From contig CAZJEQ010000001.1 in assembly GCA_964545165.1 (NCBI GenBank), forward strand, positions 1,971 to 65,970: a stretch of 64,000 nt of DNA, read 5' to 3'. Positions within the stretch are counted from its first letter, which is position 1. Each line of letters opens with the position of its first letter. Under the pieces are notes generated by a model, which was not told the DNA's origin, ran no database searches, and was given only the letters and a program-made list of their open reading frames with translations. The translations under genes and the position numbers were made by a program. This DNA is from an uncultured Candidatus Saccharibacteria bacterium. Its GTDB lineage: Bacteria; Patescibacteriota; Minisyncoccia; Phycocordibacterales; UBA2100. Below are positions 4,837 to 21,569 of this stretch, one piece after another.

Positions 4837-5391
4837 CTACTGCAGCGCCTGCGGATGACCGGCGGTGTTCTCGAGGATCGACGTCATCGCGTCCCACGTC
4901 TGCGCGAGCTTCGCGACGGTCAGCGTCGCGCCGTCGTCGATCGCCGCCTTGATGGCAATCTCGTCGGCCGCGGCCGGATCGATGATGCCACTGCTGATGC
5001 CCGTGCTGAGCATGTCGGTGCCGCTCACCTGGTAGCCGTCGTCGCCCGACGTCTTGGCGGTGATCACGCGCACGGTGCCACGATCAGGCGTTGGAAGCGC
5101 CGGCGCCGACACGAAGTCGATGTTGCTCTGGCACTGGCCGGCCGCGACGACATCCGGGTTGTGGTGCAGATAGTCGTTGCCGCCGATGCGAGCGTTACCA
5201 TTGATGATGTCGACCTGGCCGCGGTTGGCGGTGGCGAACACCTGGTTCTTGATCGTCGTGGTCTTCTCCATGAACGTCGGGCCAGCGATGCCGAATGCGT
5301 CGAACAGGGAGGTCGGCGGTGCGGCGTTGGCTTGCGAGACGAGGAATGCTGCAGCGAGCGCTGCCGCCCCCGTAATGAGCATGCGAGGCAT
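4837..5391 (-). CDS. secreted hypothetical protein (signal peptide), high-GC
   Basis: MPRMLITGAAALAAAFLVSQANA signal peptide; AAGGA-like RBS upstream; local GC ~62%, above surroundings. Confidence 0.55.
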   Translation of the reverse strand: MPRMLITGAAALAAAFLVSQANAAPPTSLFDAFGIAGPTFMEKTTTIKNQVFATANRGQVDIINGNARIGGNDYLHHNPDVVAAGQCQSNIDFVSAPALPTPDRGTVRVITAKTSGDDGYQVSGTDMLSTGISSGIIDPAAADEIAIKAAIDDGATLTVAKLAQTWDAMTSILENTAGHPQALQ

Positions 5392-5555
5392 GATTACACA
5401 TCCTTTGTTTCGAGTCTTACGCAGTTTCGCTGCGAGGAAGGAACAGGGATAGACTCTTCCTACTGCGCACAGTAGCATTTCTTCATGTAAAGATCACCCG
5501 CACCTGCAGGGGGGGGCGGTGCTATACTTTCTTCATTAACGTAATCAGTCTTTTT

Positions 5556-6008
5556 ATGATGGAAATGATGAATAAGTGGTCGCGCTGGTGCAAGAATCGC
5601 GCACTCGGCCTCCTCCTTATCCGTGCTGCTATCGGTATGGTCTTCTTCGCTCACGGTTGGATGAAGATGCAGAATATGGACATGGCAGAAGCGATGTTTA
5701 TCGGCTTCGGATTCCCAGCATGGGTCGCGGTGGCTATCGCGTGGCTCGAGGTGATAGGTGGTATCGCACTTGTCCTCGGCGTCATGACGCGTCTCTTTGC
5801 GAAGCTCTTCGTGATCGTGATGATCGTCGCATTTTTCGTGACCGGTGGCATCTCCACAGGCTACTTTGCTCACGAGATGGAGCTCGTGCTCTTCTTGGGA
5901 TCGCTCGGCATTCTCTTCGCAGGGAGTGGTCGCTACTCGCTCTGGGCGTGTGAGTGCCACAATTGCGGTGCGATGAATTGCAAAGACGGCAACTGCCAAG
6001 CGAAATAA
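5556..6008 (+). CDS. DoxX family membrane protein with Cys-rich C-terminal tail
   Basis: 4-TM DoxX-like profile (FAHGWMK...), followed by a CECHNCGAMNCKDGNCQAK tail. Confidence 0.6.
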   Translation: MMEMMNKWSRWCKNRALGLLLIRAAIGMVFFAHGWMKMQNMDMAEAMFIGFGFPAWVAVAIAWLEVIGGIALVLGVMTRLFAKLFVIVMIVAFFVTGGISTGYFAHEMELVLFLGSLGILFAGSGRYSLWACECHNCGAMNCKDGNCQAK

Positions 6009-6066
6009 TCTTCGCTGTATAAAAAACGATTCGGCGGCCTCTAGGGGGCCGCCGACCAATAGGTGG

Positions 6067-6399
6067 CTAGATATTCTGCTGCTTCAGCTCACACCGTAGG
6101 TAGAGTACATCGTCGCCGAGGCCGCGTGTATTGCAGCGCACGTTGTGTGAGGTCAGCTCGAGGATGTGGCGTACCGCCTCCTCGTTGTGATTCACAAAGT
6201 GCGCAATCTCACCTTCGCCAAGATACTGGTAATGGCGCAAGAGATAGATCCCGACGGCGCGGATGTCGAAGTGCGCGGCGTTCTCGATTGGCTTGCATAG
6301 CTCTTCGCCTGAGCAGAGTCCATAGTGACGAGCGACGAACTCAAAGATACGCGCCGCTCGTGTCTCTGTTACGTTGCCGTAACGTATGAGGGCGTCCAT
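6067..6399 (-). CDS. standalone DnaA domain IV-like (Bac_DnaA_C) helix-turn-helix protein
   Basis: Resembles the DnaA C-terminal DNA-binding domain (…LLRHYQYLGEGEIAHFVNHNEEAVRHILEL…), with no AAA+ domain. Confidence 0.4.
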   Translation of the reverse strand: MDALIRYGNVTETRAARIFEFVARHYGLCSGEELCKPIENAAHFDIRAVGIYLLRHYQYLGEGEIAHFVNHNEEAVRHILELTSHNVRCNTRGLGDDVLYLRCELKQQNI

Positions 6400-6610
6400 A
6401 TTCTTGTCCTCCTCGACCTGCGTATATCGTAGACGTGCTCACTAGATAGCGCAACAAGATCAGACATTCTGCGCATGGTGTATACACATAGTTATGCACG
6501 CGGTTATACACCTCTTACCCACATACATATCCCCCGAATCGGCGAATATGCCCTGATTCATTAAAAAATAGCGTCGTTACAATGTATCGACTGACCGCCT
6601 TACCGTGCGT

Positions 6611-6831
6611 CAGCGCAGCCGAGGACTGCTGCCCGCAAGGGGAGCAACACCAGGAGGCAGTTCCGCGGGATTACTCGCAGCTTCGGCTGGGAGGACAGAG
6701 CCGGAATCGTTCGGGGAGAGCAATGAGGGCGGTAGGTGCAAGACGGGGAGATCATATCAATCCGAGAAGTGCCGATTCGTCGTCCCACAATGCCCGAAAA
6801 CAAAAGAGACCCGAAAGGGTCTCTTTTGTTA
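6611..6831 (+). ncRNA. GC-rich structured element of ~220 nt ending in an intrinsic terminator; unclassified ncRNA or miniature insertion
   Basis: Marked GC jump; multiple hairpins (gcagc...gctgc, cagcUUCGgctg); agagaccc-GAAA-gggtctct + TTTGTT terminator at 6805-6830; flanked by 10-bp direct repeat taccgtgcgt (6601-6610 and 6832-6841). Confidence 0.3.
6805..6830. terminator. rho-independent terminator hairpin, symmetric and usable on both strands
   Basis: agagaccc GAAA gggtctct followed by a T-run. Confidence 0.55.
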
Positions 6832-6952
6832 TACCGTGCGTTGCGGTCATTGTAGTTGATTTTCCAAGAAAATTGACCCGTATCCACAGTACGAAATATG
6901 TTTGCCTACATAGGCTTGCGGCGGTATTGTGGTGACCGATCTTTGAGCCGTT

Positions 6953-7100
6953 ATTTAGCGACACATAATCGACTTTTCGCGGCGATCCTGCTGTGATGAA
7001 AGAAAATGTGAATCTTTTGCTCCGCTGTGTGCATAGCACCAGTTGTAGTCATGTCCTACATGAATGATGTAGAGGTATGAAGGATTTTGTGTCGCTAAAT
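6953..7100 (+). ncRNA. candidate retron msr/msd ncRNA bounded by a1/a2-like inverted repeats
   Basis: 12-nt perfect inverted repeat atttagcgacac (6953-6964) / gtgtcgctaaat (7089-7100). It encloses ~125 nt with internal hairpins (ctacat-gaatg-atgtag) and ends at the RT start codon. Confidence 0.35.
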
Positions 7101-8691
7101 GCCGATTGATAAAAACAAATTTCTTGCAGTTAGGAATAAAATAGCGCTGGCGTCTCTTCTCGGTGTAAGTCCACGGGCGTTAAACTTCTTTGCCTATGCA
7201 GGAGGCAAAAGATATCGCAGCTTTGATATCAAGAAGAAAAGTGGCGCCCCGAGGTTGATTTCGGCACCTAGTGGACCGCTAAAAACCTTACAGCGGAAAC
7301 TCGCGCTCGTGCTCAATGACATATATCCAGCCCCGAATTCCTCGCATGGATTCGTTTGTCAGCGTTCGATCGTAACAAACGCTGAGCGGCACGTAAGGAA
7401 GCGGATCATTTTGAATCTAGATTTAGAGGATTTTTTCCCGACAATCCACTCGGGAAGAATTTACGGTCTTTTCAAATCGGAACCATTTGGCTTCCCACAT
7501 GAGGTGGCGTCGACTCTCGCGGCGCTCGTGACATTCGAGAACAAGCTGCCGCAGGGTGCTCCAACGTCTCCGATTCTATCGAACATGATCTGTTTTCAAT
7601 TAGATCGTGACATGGCCAAGTTTGCCGCTAGTCACCATGCGACATACACCAGATACGCAGATGACATAACATTTTCGACGATGAGTCGTCGCCTCCCCGA
7701 CGCGCTCGCAATTGAGTCGGCCAGCGGGGCAGAGGCCGGAGGTTTGTTAGAGGCTTTGATAGCTCGTCACGGCTTCAAAATTAACAGCGCCAAAACTCGT
7801 ACACACGGTCTTTCTCGTGCAAAATTCGTGACCGGGGTAAAGGTGAACGAAAAAAAGAACGTCACAAAGAAATTCACACGACAACTACGTGCCATGATTC
7901 ACGCGCTTGCGAAATTTGGCCCATCGAACGCGGGTGCGGAATTTAATTCAAAGTATAACGCTGGGCCCGCAAAGAATTACGTCAGCGTCGTGCGCGGAAA
8001 ATTGGCGCACTTAAAGAACGTAAAGGGAGAAGGAGATGCTCAATATGTCCACCTCTACAATCGATATGCATCAGTTTTCGGACTGCCGCAACTCACGGAG
8101 AAACGAGATCCCAGCGAAGATCTCGAATACAAGACGTTCACAGTCGTATCCAAGAAGGGCATGAGCTCTGGATTTATTCTTAACTCAAAATATCTTGTTA
8201 CTGCGGCTCACGCTCTTGAGGAAGGCGAGAATTCTGTAAAGTACTTTGACTTCAATAATTTCCCATCAACATGCCACAGAACGGGGAGGTTGCGAGCATG
8301 CTTTCCTGAAGTTGATATAGCGCTTTTCAACATTTCGGGTAACGATTTGGACGACATATCACTCGGCCTTCCAGAAAGATATAAGGAGTCCGTCAGAGGT
8401 GATGCTTTGCGTGCATCTGGGTATCCTCTCTCGCAGCCTGGACTGCGTCCCCACATCACACCGATTACGGTGACAGGTAAGATTAGAAATAAATACGGCG
8501 CGACCCTGGTGCATGTGGACGTCCATCTTCTGAGCGGGAATAGCGGAGGGCCGGTTGTGGACCAAGATAATCGTGTCGTGGGAGTAGTAAGTAGAGGTGC
8601 ACCTAACAAGGAAGACCCCGATTACGGCACCGCATTCGTGCCAGTAAGCGAGATATTGAGAGTCTTCGCAGAGGAAGGAATTTCTTTTTAA
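7099..8691 (+). CDS. retron-type reverse transcriptase fused to a C-terminal trypsin-like serine protease
   Basis: RT motifs NAERH (NAXXH), ILNLDLEDFFPTI, QGAPTSPILSN, YADDITF, FVTGV (retron VTG). C-terminal His (TAAHAL), Asp (DIALF) and Ser (GNSGGPV) match the S1 catalytic triad. GC is low (~45%). Confidence 0.8.
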   Translation: MPIDKNKFLAVRNKIALASLLGVSPRALNFFAYAGGKRYRSFDIKKKSGAPRLISAPSGPLKTLQRKLALVLNDIYPAPNSSHGFVCQRSIVTNAERHVRKRIILNLDLEDFFPTIHSGRIYGLFKSEPFGFPHEVASTLAALVTFENKLPQGAPTSPILSNMICFQLDRDMAKFAASHHATYTRYADDITFSTMSRRLPDALAIESASGAEAGGLLEALIARHGFKINSAKTRTHGLSRAKFVTGVKVNEKKNVTKKFTRQLRAMIHALAKFGPSNAGAEFNSKYNAGPAKNYVSVVRGKLAHLKNVKGEGDAQYVHLYNRYASVFGLPQLTEKRDPSEDLEYKTFTVVSKKGMSSGFILNSKYLVTAAHALEEGENSVKYFDFNNFPSTCHRTGRLRACFPEVDIALFNISGNDLDDISLGLPERYKESVRGDALRASGYPLSQPGLRPHITPITVTGKIRNKYGATLVHVDVHLLSGNSGGPVVDQDNRVVGVVSRGAPNKEDPDYGTAFVPVSEILRVFAEEGISF

Positions 8692-9205: not shown

Positions 9206-10075
9206 ATGATCGGTATCGAAACAGCAGGCCCCCTGACGGGAGAAGCCGCGGGCATCGTGCTCAAGGAGGCCGTCAAGCGGGCCGGCGCTGAAATCCGCCG
9301 ACAGCGCTTGTCGTTCGAGTCGGGCTTCAAAGCCGGCCGCAGCGGCAAGATGGACGACGTGTTCACTTCCGCCGACACGGCGGCGCAGGAAATCATGCTG
9401 AAGATCTTGCGCGAGGTGTTCCCGAATGCGGGCATCATCGCCGAGGAGAAGCGCCTGATCATCAAGCCGAATCCCGGCTGTGAGATCTACATCACGATCG
9501 ACCCGATGGATGGCACTCGCGCGTTCAAGCGGAGGCAGTCACGCGGCGTCGGCAGCATGGTCGCGTTGATCGAGAATGGTCGCGTGCTCTCGGCTTGGAT
9601 CTACGACGTATACGCGCGGGAAGTCGTCGGCTATCGGCCCGGCTCCGACAAGGTGCACTGCGTCTTCGACGACGGTGGCAGTCTGCGCCTCGCCGCGCCG
9701 ACTCGACGGTTGCGCGAGGCATATGTGCTGCTGCGCGACCCGCTCGATAAGTATTCGGCGACGAGCGCGTCAATGGTGCAAAAGTTCCGCAGCCACGAGA
9801 TCGAGGGCGGCTCGATCGGCGTCTGGATGATGCGCCTGTTCAAGGGCGAGTGCGGCGGCGTGATCATGCTGCCGTCGGATGACAATCCCTGGGACGTGGC
9901 ACCGATCTACGGTATCGCGCTCAAGCTCGGCTACGTGTTCCTCAGGCCGTTCGGCGATTCGTGGGAGCGGTACGAGCCGTACATCGGGCCAGAGGTGCAG
10001 CCGCGAGATCATGACACGCTGATCGTGCACGAGCGTGCGCTCGGTCAAATCCGTCTTCGCGCTATCGCCGCCTGA
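9206..10075 (+). CDS. inositol monophosphatase / CysQ-family phosphatase
   Basis: DPMDGT and WDVAPIYGIALKLG motifs of the IMPase/FBPase superfamily; GC ~63%. Confidence 0.7.
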   Translation: MIGIETAGPLTGEAAGIVLKEAVKRAGAEIRRQRLSFESGFKAGRSGKMDDVFTSADTAAQEIMLKILREVFPNAGIIAEEKRLIIKPNPGCEIYITIDPMDGTRAFKRRQSRGVGSMVALIENGRVLSAWIYDVYAREVVGYRPGSDKVHCVFDDGGSLRLAAPTRRLREAYVLLRDPLDKYSATSASMVQKFRSHEIEGGSIGVWMMRLFKGECGGVIMLPSDDNPWDVAPIYGIALKLGYVFLRPFGDSWERYEPYIGPEVQPRDHDTLIVHERALGQIRLRAIAA

Positions 10076-19034: not shown

Positions 19035-21569
19035 ATGAGGAGGCTCACTCGTGCGACTGCTGTAATTCTTTCGTTTGCGATGCTGCTGTCGCCGCTCACA
19101 GTGACAGCGCAAGGATCATTCCCGTCTAATTGGGCCTCTCTTACACCGCAGCAGCAGACCAATTGGTTGAATGCATACAATAACCAGACGTTGCCGGCGT
19201 ACGTCTCGCCGACAGTTCCTTCGAGCCCCTCTCTATGGTCGCAATTTACAAATTTGTTCAGTGCGCCGTCGCCATCTCCTGCGTACAACCCCTATTCTGC
19301 GCAGTCGCCGGATATGTACGGTCAGCAGAATCAGTACACCTCTACTAACAACGCGTTACAGGATTACAGTCGCCTCAATCCGTCATCGGGTACGACGGGC
19401 GGACAAGGATGGGGAGGTCCCGAGCCCGCACCGGGAAGCTTGAGTGGCTCGGGGAGCGGAGCGGGTGCAAGCGCTGGGGGAGGCAGTGCAGCGGGTGCGA
19501 TAGCTGGACCAGCGGCTTCGATTGGTGCGGGAGCAATCATGAATCAAGGAGGCAATCTCTTGTGCGCAAATGTCATCGTCAATAATCTGTGCCCACCGTG
19601 CTCACTCCCCGAAAAAGCATCGAACCCAGCCGGGTACAACTGTATCCCAAAGGCCAATCAATATATGTGTCCTGGCTCGTGTTTTGATATTTCATCGGCC
19701 ACGGTTGGTATGTGTGTTGCGCCCGGAAAATGTCAGGCAGTGTCAGCACCGGGTCTCGGTGGCATTGGCGGCGGATTGCTCTCGACGCTCGGTGTTGGTG
19801 TGACGATGTCGGTGGTTGGAGCCGTCGTCGGCAAGCTCGTGAGTGGTTTTGGCGCTGCATCCGGCGGCGGCACGAATCCTGGTGCCAGCGGATACGGTAG
19901 CAATCCGTTTGGTTCGACGAATCCGACCGCGCAAACCTGCACCTCGTATCGGCCGACCAGCGACACCGCCCAGCTCTCACAGCCGTGCACGTACTATGTC
20001 CCTGCTTCGGGGACGAGTACGGGTACCACTGGTACGGGCACTACGTGCAGTGCGATGGATCAGGCACTGGGCCTCTGCGGCGGCACGAGCACCGGCACTA
20101 CCGGCACGGGCACTGGTACGAACACGTGCAGCCCGACCTCGCAAGCCCTCGGCCTCTGCGGCGGCACGAGCACGACGACCAGTGCGACCAATGCCTCAGT
20201 CTCAGCCACGCCAACGTCTGGCCCGGCACCGCTCAGCGTCACCTTTACGGTGACAGATACCTCGACTGGCTGTACGCGCGATGCGGTCACACTCGCATAC
20301 GGTGATTCATCGGCAGCGGTCACGGTGTTTGCGGCAACGACTGCGTGTGGTGCGCGCAATCCGGCGACGCTCACGCATACGTATGCGACGAGCAGTTCCT
20401 TCGTCGCGCGCCTCAAGAATGCTGCGAGCGGAGCGGAGCTCTCGAGTGTCAGTATTACCGCGACGGCACCAGGGACGACCGGCGGAGGACCCATCGCTGA
20501 CGTGACGACGGCAGCACTCGCCGCAGCGCCCTCGTCTGGTTCCGCACCGCTTTCTGTTTCGATCATCGCATCCGACACATCACCCGAATGTCCTCATGCG
20601 CCGATCGGTATCAGATACGGAGACGATTCAGCCCCGATAACGCTCTTCGATGGTGTGACCAGTTGCGGACAAGCGGCACAGCGGCTGACGCATGCGTACG
20701 TGGCACCTGGCTCGTACAAGCTTGAGCTCGTAAAAGCGGGAGGTGCGATCGTCCGTTCGGTCACTATCAATGTGAGCGCGCCGACGACGGGCACGGGTGG
20801 CACGCAAGGACAAGGTGGGGTGCAGACGACATTCGATGCAGACGCGCAACCGATTACCGCTGGCGTCCAATCATCCGAAAATCAAGCGACCATTACCTCT
20901 GGTGGCGCGGCTCCTGCGGGAGCGCCGACAGGCGACATCAAGCTCTTTGGCGCGGGTGCGACTATTTCTGCATCCACCAAGGACGCGCAGACCAATACCA
21001 CGGTCTCTGGCTTCGTCGGTGGCAACACCAACAGCACTATCAACGATAAGAGCGTTGCGCAGCGCTTGTGCGTCTCGCGACCATGGAGCAGCAATTTCCT
21101 TTCTTATGTGATTCCGCCGTCGTTCTTCGACTCGCTCTGTTCGTGGCGTGGCTACGAAGTGGGGCAGGCAACCTCGACGCCTGTCGTGCCAACGACTTCC
21201 ACCACACAAACCAGCGTGAAGCCGCAGGTGCAGCTGACGCAGCAGCCCGCGAAGACGACACCCGCTTCGGTGAAGCCAGCGACTACGACGCCGGTCCTCA
21301 CGACACCGGCAAAAATAGATGTGTGGGCGGTGCCAGCCAGCGTCCCGCTCGGCTCGCGCACGTCAATCTTCTGGAATGCTGAGGGTGTGGAGAGCTGCCT
21401 CATTACCTCGCCCGATGGGAGCTTTACGCAGAACGTCTCGGGCGCAAATCTCCGCAACAAGGGCGCCTCGACCGTGCCGATTATTGCCGCCACCACCTTC
21501 TCAATGTCATGTCTGCGTGCCGATGGTTCGCATGTGACAGATTTCGTCACGGTAAAGATTGCCATTTAA
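19035..21569 (+). CDS. large secreted surface protein with Gly/Ser/Thr-rich region, two PKD-like domains and C-terminal Ig-like domain
   Basis: Signal peptide MRRLTRATAVILSFAMLLSPLTVTAQG; internal repeats (CS.MDQALGLCGGTSTGTTGTG x2); PKD-like repeats (PLSVTF...GD...LTHTY...); the C-terminal domain is shared with the 32796 protein. Confidence 0.7.
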   Translation: MRRLTRATAVILSFAMLLSPLTVTAQGSFPSNWASLTPQQQTNWLNAYNNQTLPAYVSPTVPSSPSLWSQFTNLFSAPSPSPAYNPYSAQSPDMYGQQNQYTSTNNALQDYSRLNPSSGTTGGQGWGGPEPAPGSLSGSGSGAGASAGGGSAAGAIAGPAASIGAGAIMNQGGNLLCANVIVNNLCPPCSLPEKASNPAGYNCIPKANQYMCPGSCFDISSATVGMCVAPGKCQAVSAPGLGGIGGGLLSTLGVGVTMSVVGAVVGKLVSGFGAASGGGTNPGASGYGSNPFGSTNPTAQTCTSYRPTSDTAQLSQPCTYYVPASGTSTGTTGTGTTCSAMDQALGLCGGTSTGTTGTGTGTNTCSPTSQALGLCGGTSTTTSATNASVSATPTSGPAPLSVTFTVTDTSTGCTRDAVTLAYGDSSAAVTVFAATTACGARNPATLTHTYATSSSFVARLKNAASGAELSSVSITATAPGTTGGGPIADVTTAALAAAPSSGSAPLSVSIIASDTSPECPHAPIGIRYGDDSAPITLFDGVTSCGQAAQRLTHAYVAPGSYKLELVKAGGAIVRSVTINVSAPTTGTGGTQGQGGVQTTFDADAQPITAGVQSSENQATITSGGAAPAGAPTGDIKLFGAGATISASTKDAQTNTTVSGFVGGNTNSTINDKSVAQRLCVSRPWSSNFLSYVIPPSFFDSLCSWRGYEVGQATSTPVVPTTSTTQTSVKPQVQLTQQPAKTTPASVKPATTTPVLTTPAKIDVWAVPASVPLGSRTSIFWNAEGVESCLITSPDGSFTQNVSGANLRNKGASTVPIIAATTFSMSCLRADGSHVTDFVTVKIAI

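Follow-up and report, generated by a model that had tools for sequence, protein, structure and literature searches.

Directly upstream of a type XI retron, a compact GC-rich block raises the question of whether it is a mobile insertion, a part of the retron or a gene of its own. In the window (the whole stretch of DNA analysed here, 64 kb) its region has yebC-ruvC-PBP1A as left-hand and ruvB as right-hand neighbours (Table 1). The initial annotation had described positions 6611-6831 as an abrupt GC-rich block with strong hairpins, flanked by a perfect 10-bp direct repeat, and had seen in it a miniature non-autonomous insertion or, alternatively, an independent sRNA gene upstream of the retron. 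The description of the block is borne out: the GC fraction is 0.64-0.65 at 6600-6750 with respect to 0.46 in the flanks, and folding of the forward strand gives -113.4 kcal/mol (a z of -5.4 relative to shuffles, and of -3.4 for the reverse strand). Both copies of the repeat can be read in the sequence, as can the UUCG stem (hairpin CAGC-UUCG-GCUG). The intrinsic terminator proposed at 6805-6830 is also present, but with slightly shifted coordinates: its stem is formed by 6800-6812 and 6817-6829 around a GAAA loop, and the T-run lies partly in the stem. The block is very probably a conserved structured non-coding RNA (ncRNA) gene, neither a transposon nor a part of the retron, and ~6590-6831 would represent an independent chromosomal gene for a structured ncRNA of ~235 nt that is absent from Rfam 15.

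Table 1. Coordinates of the features of the RNA locus and of its retron neighbour in the window
Feature	Position	Strand	Details
Array of DnaA-box-like 9-mers (n = 5)	6480-6536	+	11-13 bp apart; GTATACACA, TTATGCACG, TTATACACC, TTACCCACA, TATCCCCCG
Predicted -10-like hexamer of the RNA gene	6578-6583	+	TACAAT; predicted transcription start ~6590
Outer inverted repeat	6592-6598 and 6843-6849		tgaccgc and gcggtca; not considered functional
Conserved 5' leader	6599-6610	+	CUUACCGUGCGU; includes repeat copy 1 (6601-6610)
Domain P1	6615-6658	+	closing helix, internal loops, apical hairpin with GNRA or UUCG cap
Domain P2	6659-6707	+	6-bp helix GUUCCG/CGGAAU around UUCG hairpin (6678-6689) and conserved GACAnUGC strand
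Domain P3-P5	6710-6798	+	6-bp helix UUCGGG/CCCGAA around a long irregular hairpin
P3-P5 apical loop	6748-6760	+	GAGAUCAUAUCAA; second most conserved sequence of the RNA
Bidirectional intrinsic terminator	6800-6831	both	13-bp stem, GAAA loop, A-tract before, T-tract after
Repeat copy 2	6832-6841		TACCGTGCGT; reverse strand reads ACGCACGGUA, complement of the RNA leader
Predicted short antisense RNA, ~45-50 nt	6790-6841	-	ACGCACGGUA, then terminator hairpin and U-run; predicted from promoter- and terminator-like sequence
CATTGTA (TACAATG on reverse strand)	6848-6854	-	predicted -10 of the convergent promoter
Lone downstream DnaA-box-like 9-mer	6880-6888	+	GTATCCACA
Retron msr/msd-like ncRNA	6950-7101	+	long a1/a2 duplex; neighbour, outside the RNA gene
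Type XI retron reverse transcriptase fused to trypsin-like protease	7099-8691	+	neighbour, outside the RNA gene

A covariance model (R1) built from two sequences only, those of the window and of a retron-bearing relative (L001), retrieved full-length matches in five relatives without a retron nearby, which had been sampled through Kaiserbacteria ruvB loci (L014, 133 bits; L016, 104; L023, 97; L025, 92; L015, two matches at 87 and 57). Another copy in L001 was matched as well, at 44 bits. The total is nine copies in seven genomes, all lying in the variable interval between ruvB and yebC, with one copy each in L014, L016, L023 and L025, two in tandem in L015 and two in L001. RuvB identity to the window is 84-93% across the relatives and 84-90% in the five retron-less ones; the closest RuvB proteins, at 86-93% identity, carry the label Candidatus Kaiserbacteria, which places the window in a CPR/Patescibacteria genome. 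The RNA was found in every close Candidatus Kaiserbacteria relative whose matching region was readable, and no copy occurs within 7 kb of ruvB on six contigs of one further Kaiserbacteria species (L017-L022). Pairwise identity among the nine copies is 43-65%. By their sequence signatures they can tentatively be assigned to two subtypes, and both two-copy genomes would carry one of each. Searches with fixed patterns added little: GGAATNGTTNGGNGAGNGCANTGAGG matched nothing in genome contigs or in viral contigs, which is no evidence of absence because the pattern is too strict and several of the later true homologues do not match it, and a three-block pattern scanned against metagenomes returned only the L001 contig again, together with three coding false positives.

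Folded singly, each of the nine copies shows the same three-domain layout. Both alignments used to count pairs, one guided by the model and one manual, were fitted to the structure. In the model-guided, structure-fitted alignment 93.4% of the cells are paired, with respect to 75.8 +/- 1.4 in shuffles and 37-46% with slid partners. In the same structure-fitted alignment 26 pairs have changed on both sides (14.9 +/- 2.1 in shuffles) and the covariation score is 0.503 (0.176 in shuffles), the observed values of all three measures being reached by 0 of 500 shuffles. The manual alignment, likewise fitted to the structure, has 37 pairs and is 93.7% paired, and helices P2 and P3 were also recovered by MAFFT and RNAalifold without structural guidance. 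Compensatory pair types are found in P1 at four of five closing pairs and four of four apical pairs (manual alignment). Helix 4, in P2, is 96.8% paired (model-guided alignment), whereas P3 (helix 6) reaches 100%, with five pairs changed on both sides. The core GAU....UC.A of the P3-P5 loop is invariant across the copies. The terminator helix (helix 11) is also 100% paired, with changes on both sides in nine of ten pairs. In a test limited to the sequence level, a GC-rich terminator stem between an A-run and a T-run is shared by all nine copies, and the A-rich run that precedes the stem in each of them would become a U-run in transcripts of the opposite strand. Pairing of the internal loop of P2 with the loop of P5 as a pseudoknot was considered by eye and dropped as inconsistent across copies. 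Three-frame translation of the nine copies yielded no conserved ORF, stop codons being scattered through all frames.

By eye, the initial annotation had found no match to RNase P, tmRNA, SRP, 6S, common riboswitches or hammerhead motifs, and a scan of the window and its relatives against Rfam 15 agrees with it: neither the gathering score nor E <= 10 brought up anything besides tRNAs and terminator-like noise, and the best scores (13-25 bits, for thresholds of 37-114) all fall on the terminator. This bears on the reading of the locus as a highly divergent housekeeping RNA (6S, SRP, RNase P or tmRNA) that the Rfam models would miss in CPR. RNAs of the CPR are often divergent, and the two paralogous copies recall the 6S-1/6S-2 pair that Bacillus possesses, but none of the 4227 models matched at E <= 10. 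Moreover, the three consecutive local domains are unlike the end-to-end rod with a central bubble of 6S RNA; no P4-type GGAAAGUCC motif, SRP domain IV motif or tRNA-like ends were seen by eye; and another Kaiserbacteria species has no copy near ruvB. We consider a housekeeping RNA very unlikely. A tmRNA or tRNA-like RNA was also dropped after ARAGORN found none.

A cis-acting leader or riboswitch, controlling downstream genes through the terminator, is quite unlikely for other reasons. The structured RNA does end in a terminator, and in some loci a yggT-like, DoxX or RelA/SpoT-type gene lies downstream on the same strand. However, the identity of the downstream gene varies and in L014 and L025 it is convergent, the 13-bp terminator has no evident competing antiterminator, P3 ends right at the terminator base, and no Rfam riboswitch or leader matches. 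The RNA rather resembles orphan ncRNA classes such as the raiA motif RNA (PMC10861870), also a multi-helix RNA of ~200 nt with conserved loops and compensatory changes, independently transcribed (as is predicted here) and with no assigned biochemical function. It differs from the orphan classes of Rfam in matching none of them in sequence or structure, in its narrow known range of seven related genomes, and in its conserved single-stranded leader and repeat-based antisense layout.

The CPR/Patescibacteria represent a large, mostly uncultured bacterial diversity with tiny genomes, and we know of almost nothing on their regulatory RNAs. A three-domain RNA of ~235 nt, with a fold kept at ~50% identity, an invariant leader of 9 nt and two tentative subtypes, is a strong candidate for a new class of functional RNA.

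The mobile-element reading holds that a miniature non-autonomous transposable element carrying an RNA inserted into a former hairpin and left a 10-bp target-site duplication. What speaks for it is that the limits of the GC-rich block coincide exactly with the perfect repeat, beyond which lie the arms of a 7-bp inverted repeat, and that two genomes carry two copies each. We consider it extremely unlikely nonetheless, as the block lacks the properties of such elements. Terminal inverted repeats are missing, since the sequence of one end (CAGCGCAGCC...) does not return in inverted form at the other (...CTCTTTTGTTA), and inverted matches within the block are limited to the terminator. It is present once in the 64 kb and once or twice in the loci covered in the relatives, always in the ruvB-yebC interval, and the five retron-less orthologous loci all carry the RNA, so that no empty site was found. 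The conserved unit reaches ~120 bp upstream and ~55 bp downstream of the repeats; because conserved sequence thus runs beyond both of them, the repeats lie inside a larger unit and a target-site duplication cannot explain them. Copies that are 35-57% different have kept the repeat, which a neutral duplication would not be expected to do. As for the supposed older hairpin, its 7-bp arms exist in the window but are absent from the other eight copies, and this outer inverted repeat is probably specific to this genome or due to chance. Of the findings that the initial annotation would have counted against an insertion, the single copy (in the 64 kb) is seen, whereas the repeats are present in orthologous loci and no Rfam family matches the segment. 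BLASTN of 6560-6860 against phage and plasmid collections gave only terminator-like matches, and a scan of viral contigs for the repeat pair gave two matches, both rejected as false positives because they lie inside ORFs and are unmatched by the model. The locus resembles MITEs in being small (~220 bp) and in having a short direct repeat on either side, but it has no terminal inverted repeats and, in the loci covered, no dispersed copies or empty sites, and its repeats lie inside the conserved unit. What stands of the initial annotation is its alternative, an independent sRNA gene with its own predicted -10 element and terminator and a covarying fold, occurring with or without a retron.

The neighbouring retron is clearly of type XI (PADLOC RT-Protease_XI, E = 3e-149; Pfam RVT_1 and Trypsin_2). 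Its closest reverse transcriptase (P0002, 64% identity) is the only one above 45% identity in 5.8 billion proteins, and on the contig of P0002, L001, the retron adjoins ruvB with a homologous RNA upstream. No protein identical to the reverse transcriptase of the window is on record, and a query with it against genome contigs returned no relatives. This retron clade is present in two genomes only, and in both the RNA lies directly upstream of it in the same orientation, so that the RNA could be suspected to be a second, accessory RNA of the retron (for instance a regulator or an extra template). This reading has hardly any probability left once other loci are compared: five genomes have the RNA without a retron nearby, four other type XI retrons, at 42-45% identity of the reverse transcriptase (L002, L005, L007 and L008), lack the RNA upstream, and the RNA has its own strong terminator. 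In addition, the RNA that precedes the retron is of one subtype in the window and of the other in L001, as judged from their sequence signatures. In L016 and L023 a yggT-like gene directly follows the RNA, and its ortholog in the window (79% and 67% identical, respectively) comes after the retron. From this gene order the retron appears as a later insertion between the RNA gene and the yggT-like gene; on these comparisons it is an unrelated cassette. It is possible that the downstream module of the RNA gene is a preferred landing site for defence cassettes, for example the type XI retron. Telling the RNA gene of the host apart from the retron avoids its misannotation as a retron part and exposes the real type XI ncRNA.

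That ncRNA is an msr/msd-like RNA situated directly upstream of the RT-protease gene in the window (Table 1), L001 (5838-6008), L002 (3262-3426), L005 (2838-3008), L007 (2853-3008) and L008 (1945-2101). It has an a1/a2 duplex of ~22 bp (ATTTAGCGACAC... / ...GTGTCGCTAAAT) that overlaps the start codon of the reverse transcriptase and a conserved hairpin, UCGCGGCGAUCCUGCUGYGA; over the six type XI loci, 15 of its 33 pairs show changes on both sides. Mestre et al. 2020 (PMC7736814) had listed type XI without a recognisable ncRNA. Structured RNA genes are also found next to other type XI retrons. In L002, a tmRNA gene (5421-5820, reverse strand) lies 400 nt after the reverse transcriptase. In L005, the region 2300-2800 resembles by eye a tRNA gene that a group I intron interrupts (Rfam match at 2348-2545), although ARAGORN called no tRNA in L005; downstream of it, the tRNA-like 3' end is repeated and a large serine recombinase is encoded.

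If the 10-bp repeat is no insertion scar, it would be a conserved working part of the locus. TACCGTGCGT occurs only twice in the 64 kb, at the two edges of the block, and its reverse complement is absent. The repeat is not significant alone because perfect 10-mers repeated within 300 bp are common in the window (85 such k-mer pairs); its significance comes from its conservation. The 5' copy is present in 9/9 copies, where ACCGUGCGU, within the leader UUUACCGUGCGU, is an invariant stretch of 9 nt. The 3' copy is intact in 7/9, degenerate in an eighth (L001a, TACGGTGCGC) and absent in L015a, and four of the five retron-less orthologous loci also have it.

The surroundings of the repeat follow a common order. 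The upstream half consists of three to eight DnaA-box-like 9-mers, 40-50 nt, a -10-like hexamer, 15-17 nt and the leader, and the downstream half of the RNA, the terminator, the second repeat, 6-8 nt, CATTGTA, 25-27 nt and TTATCCCCAC. These spacings are kept in seven of the nine copies, a conservation that is inflated by the shared ancestry of the seven genomes, all close relatives. The upstream hexamer has the form TAnnnT (TATAGT, TATACT, TACAAT, TACTAT or TACCAT) and is found in all nine copies, whereas the downstream one follows the second repeat in seven (CATTGTA in five, TATTGTA and CATTCTA in one each). An extra hairpin separates the terminator from the second repeat in L023, where the spacing between repeat and CATTGTA is kept. 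No recognisable -35 element was found at either predicted promoter; promoters in these bacteria are poorly known.

In the mechanism that we propose, the long RNA would be transcribed from its own promoter, with the -10 element downstream of the DnaA-box-like array, and would comprise the invariant single-stranded leader with the first repeat copy, the three consecutive helical domains and the bidirectional terminator. The second copy would lie at the start of a convergent transcript of ~45-50 nt, driven by the TACAAT of the other strand and ending at the same terminator; the spacing of CATTGTA to the repeat places its predicted start at the A of ACGCACGGUA. Since the repeat would be read in one direction in the long RNA and in the other in the short one, the 5' regions of the two would be complementary, and the predicted duplex of leader and antisense has -16 to -22 kcal/mol where the module is complete (seven copies) and -12.2 in L001a. 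The short RNA could thus pair with the long one and control it, in the way RNA II acts on RNA I of the pAD1 par locus. The antisense partner would not be obligatory, since the downstream module is missing altogether in L015a, and L001a has the degenerate repeat and no CATTGTA. We give this pairing mechanism slightly less than an even chance. The complete statement, that is an ncRNA gene family with its own promoter, antisense control of the leader and a retron inserted later, appears to us marginally favoured. Trans targets of the leader or of the apical loop were sought in the loci examined, and only 9-mers at chance level came up.

The par locus of the Enterococcus faecalis plasmid pAD1 encodes two RNAs of ~230 and ~40 nt from convergent promoters with a shared bidirectional terminator, and its direct repeats in the DNA are transcribed in opposite directions (PMC7472228). 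We infer a short convergent antisense RNA here because the layout mirrors this RNA I/RNA II (Fst-type) locus without the toxin ORF. A long and a short RNA (~230 and ~40-50 nt, both predicted here), a single shared bidirectional intrinsic terminator and direct repeats crossed in opposite directions, which give complementary 5' regions, are common to both; the convergent promoters of par would have their counterpart in the -10-like hexamers conserved at fixed spacing on both strands. In contrast to par, the locus has one 10-nt repeat instead of the DRa/DRb pair, is flanked by DnaA-box-like arrays, belongs to a CPR bacterium and not to a Firmicute, and the long RNA has a covarying three-domain non-coding fold. 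The locus could also be read as a type I toxin-antitoxin system of the par/Fst kind with the long RNA as toxin mRNA. The layout matches par point for point, but neither a conserved ORF nor a hydrophobic peptide is encoded in the three frames of the nine copies, insertions and deletions are not in multiples of three, and the helices covary; such a toxin mRNA is exceedingly improbable. If the antisense proposal is true, a par-like layout without toxin ORF would indicate that this regulatory design is used beyond toxin-antitoxin systems.

Another reading needs no RNA pairing: the 10-mer could be a DNA operator, with a sequence-specific protein binding both copies just downstream of the convergent starts and repressing or looping the locus. 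At both positions the motif is indeed conserved as DNA, and each copy falls in transcribed sequence close to a predicted promoter. On the other hand, the 10-mer has no dyad symmetry, two copies ~230 bp apart in direct orientation are unusual for operators, the first copy is embedded in an RNA whose other parts show selection at the RNA level, and exactly such a geometry is explained by RNA pairing in the known par layout. We regard an operator as unlikely, with a probability that is low but not negligible.

An array of DnaA-box-like 9-mers equivalent to that of the window lies upstream of all nine copies. The window has 14 forward-strand matches to TTATNCACA (with at most one mismatch), four of them within a span of 44 bp in the array, the site of the densest 300-bp stretch of the window (four boxes for 0.15 expected). 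A downstream box (TTATCCCCAC, TTATGCACA or TATCCACA) follows CATTGTA by 25-27 nt in 7/9 copies, and in L016, L014 and L025 the dnaA-dnaN spacer also has clusters of the box motif. Because the motif is the same as in that spacer, the arrays suggest that the promoter of the RNA gene is under DnaA control. DnaA-regulated promoters and DnaA-box clusters are known outside oriC, for example in B. subtilis (PMC2533591); as there, several phased TTATNCACA-like boxes lie beside a promoter (a predicted one here), a few kb from dnaA. Unlike there, the gene controlled by these putative DnaA sites would be an ncRNA. The association of a conserved RNA gene with a DnaA-box array hints at a coupling between replication status and RNA regulation. 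The locus may even form a sense/antisense module made of RNA alone and tied to the replication initiator, in which a large structured ncRNA of a hitherto unrecognised CPR class, under DnaA-box control, is checked by a short convergent antisense through the 10-nt repeat. We consider this rather doubtful; if it is true, the module could act as a riboregulator linked to the cell cycle or to replication, or as an RNA toxin with an RNA antitoxin.

In the loci that have both regions, the densest box clusters are those of the dnaA-dnaN spacer and upstream of the RNA gene (window, Table 1; L016 16300-16560; L014 13040-13065; L025 18964-19204). A replication origin at the array of the window was rejected, as the cumulative GC skew keeps climbing over the first ~20 kb of the window and does not turn at 6.5 kb. 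In L023 and L024, a gene for a protein with a weak match to Bac_DnaA_C, the DNA-binding domain of DnaA (252 aa; L023 11091-11849, forward strand), comes right after ruvB, ~1.5 kb from the RNA gene, and its product could be a second reader of the DnaA-box-like sites.

Other genes of the interval also vary. Between yebC and the RNA gene, the window carries three ORFs on the reverse strand (4837-6399; 213, 199 and 110 aa) with no Pfam or PADLOC match and with no BLASTP similarity to a handful of neighbouring ORFs from L001, L014, L016 and L025; these ORFs could belong to a variable island. A gene of the inositol-monophosphatase family (9206-10075, forward strand) separates the yggT-like gene of the window from ruvB; none was called in that interval in L016 or L023, so that it is another variable gene there. 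Finally, direct repeats with a period of 81 bp occupy ~19864-20164 of the window, with GGCCTCTGCGGCGGCACGAGCAC at 20070 and 20151 and a partial third copy at 19864.
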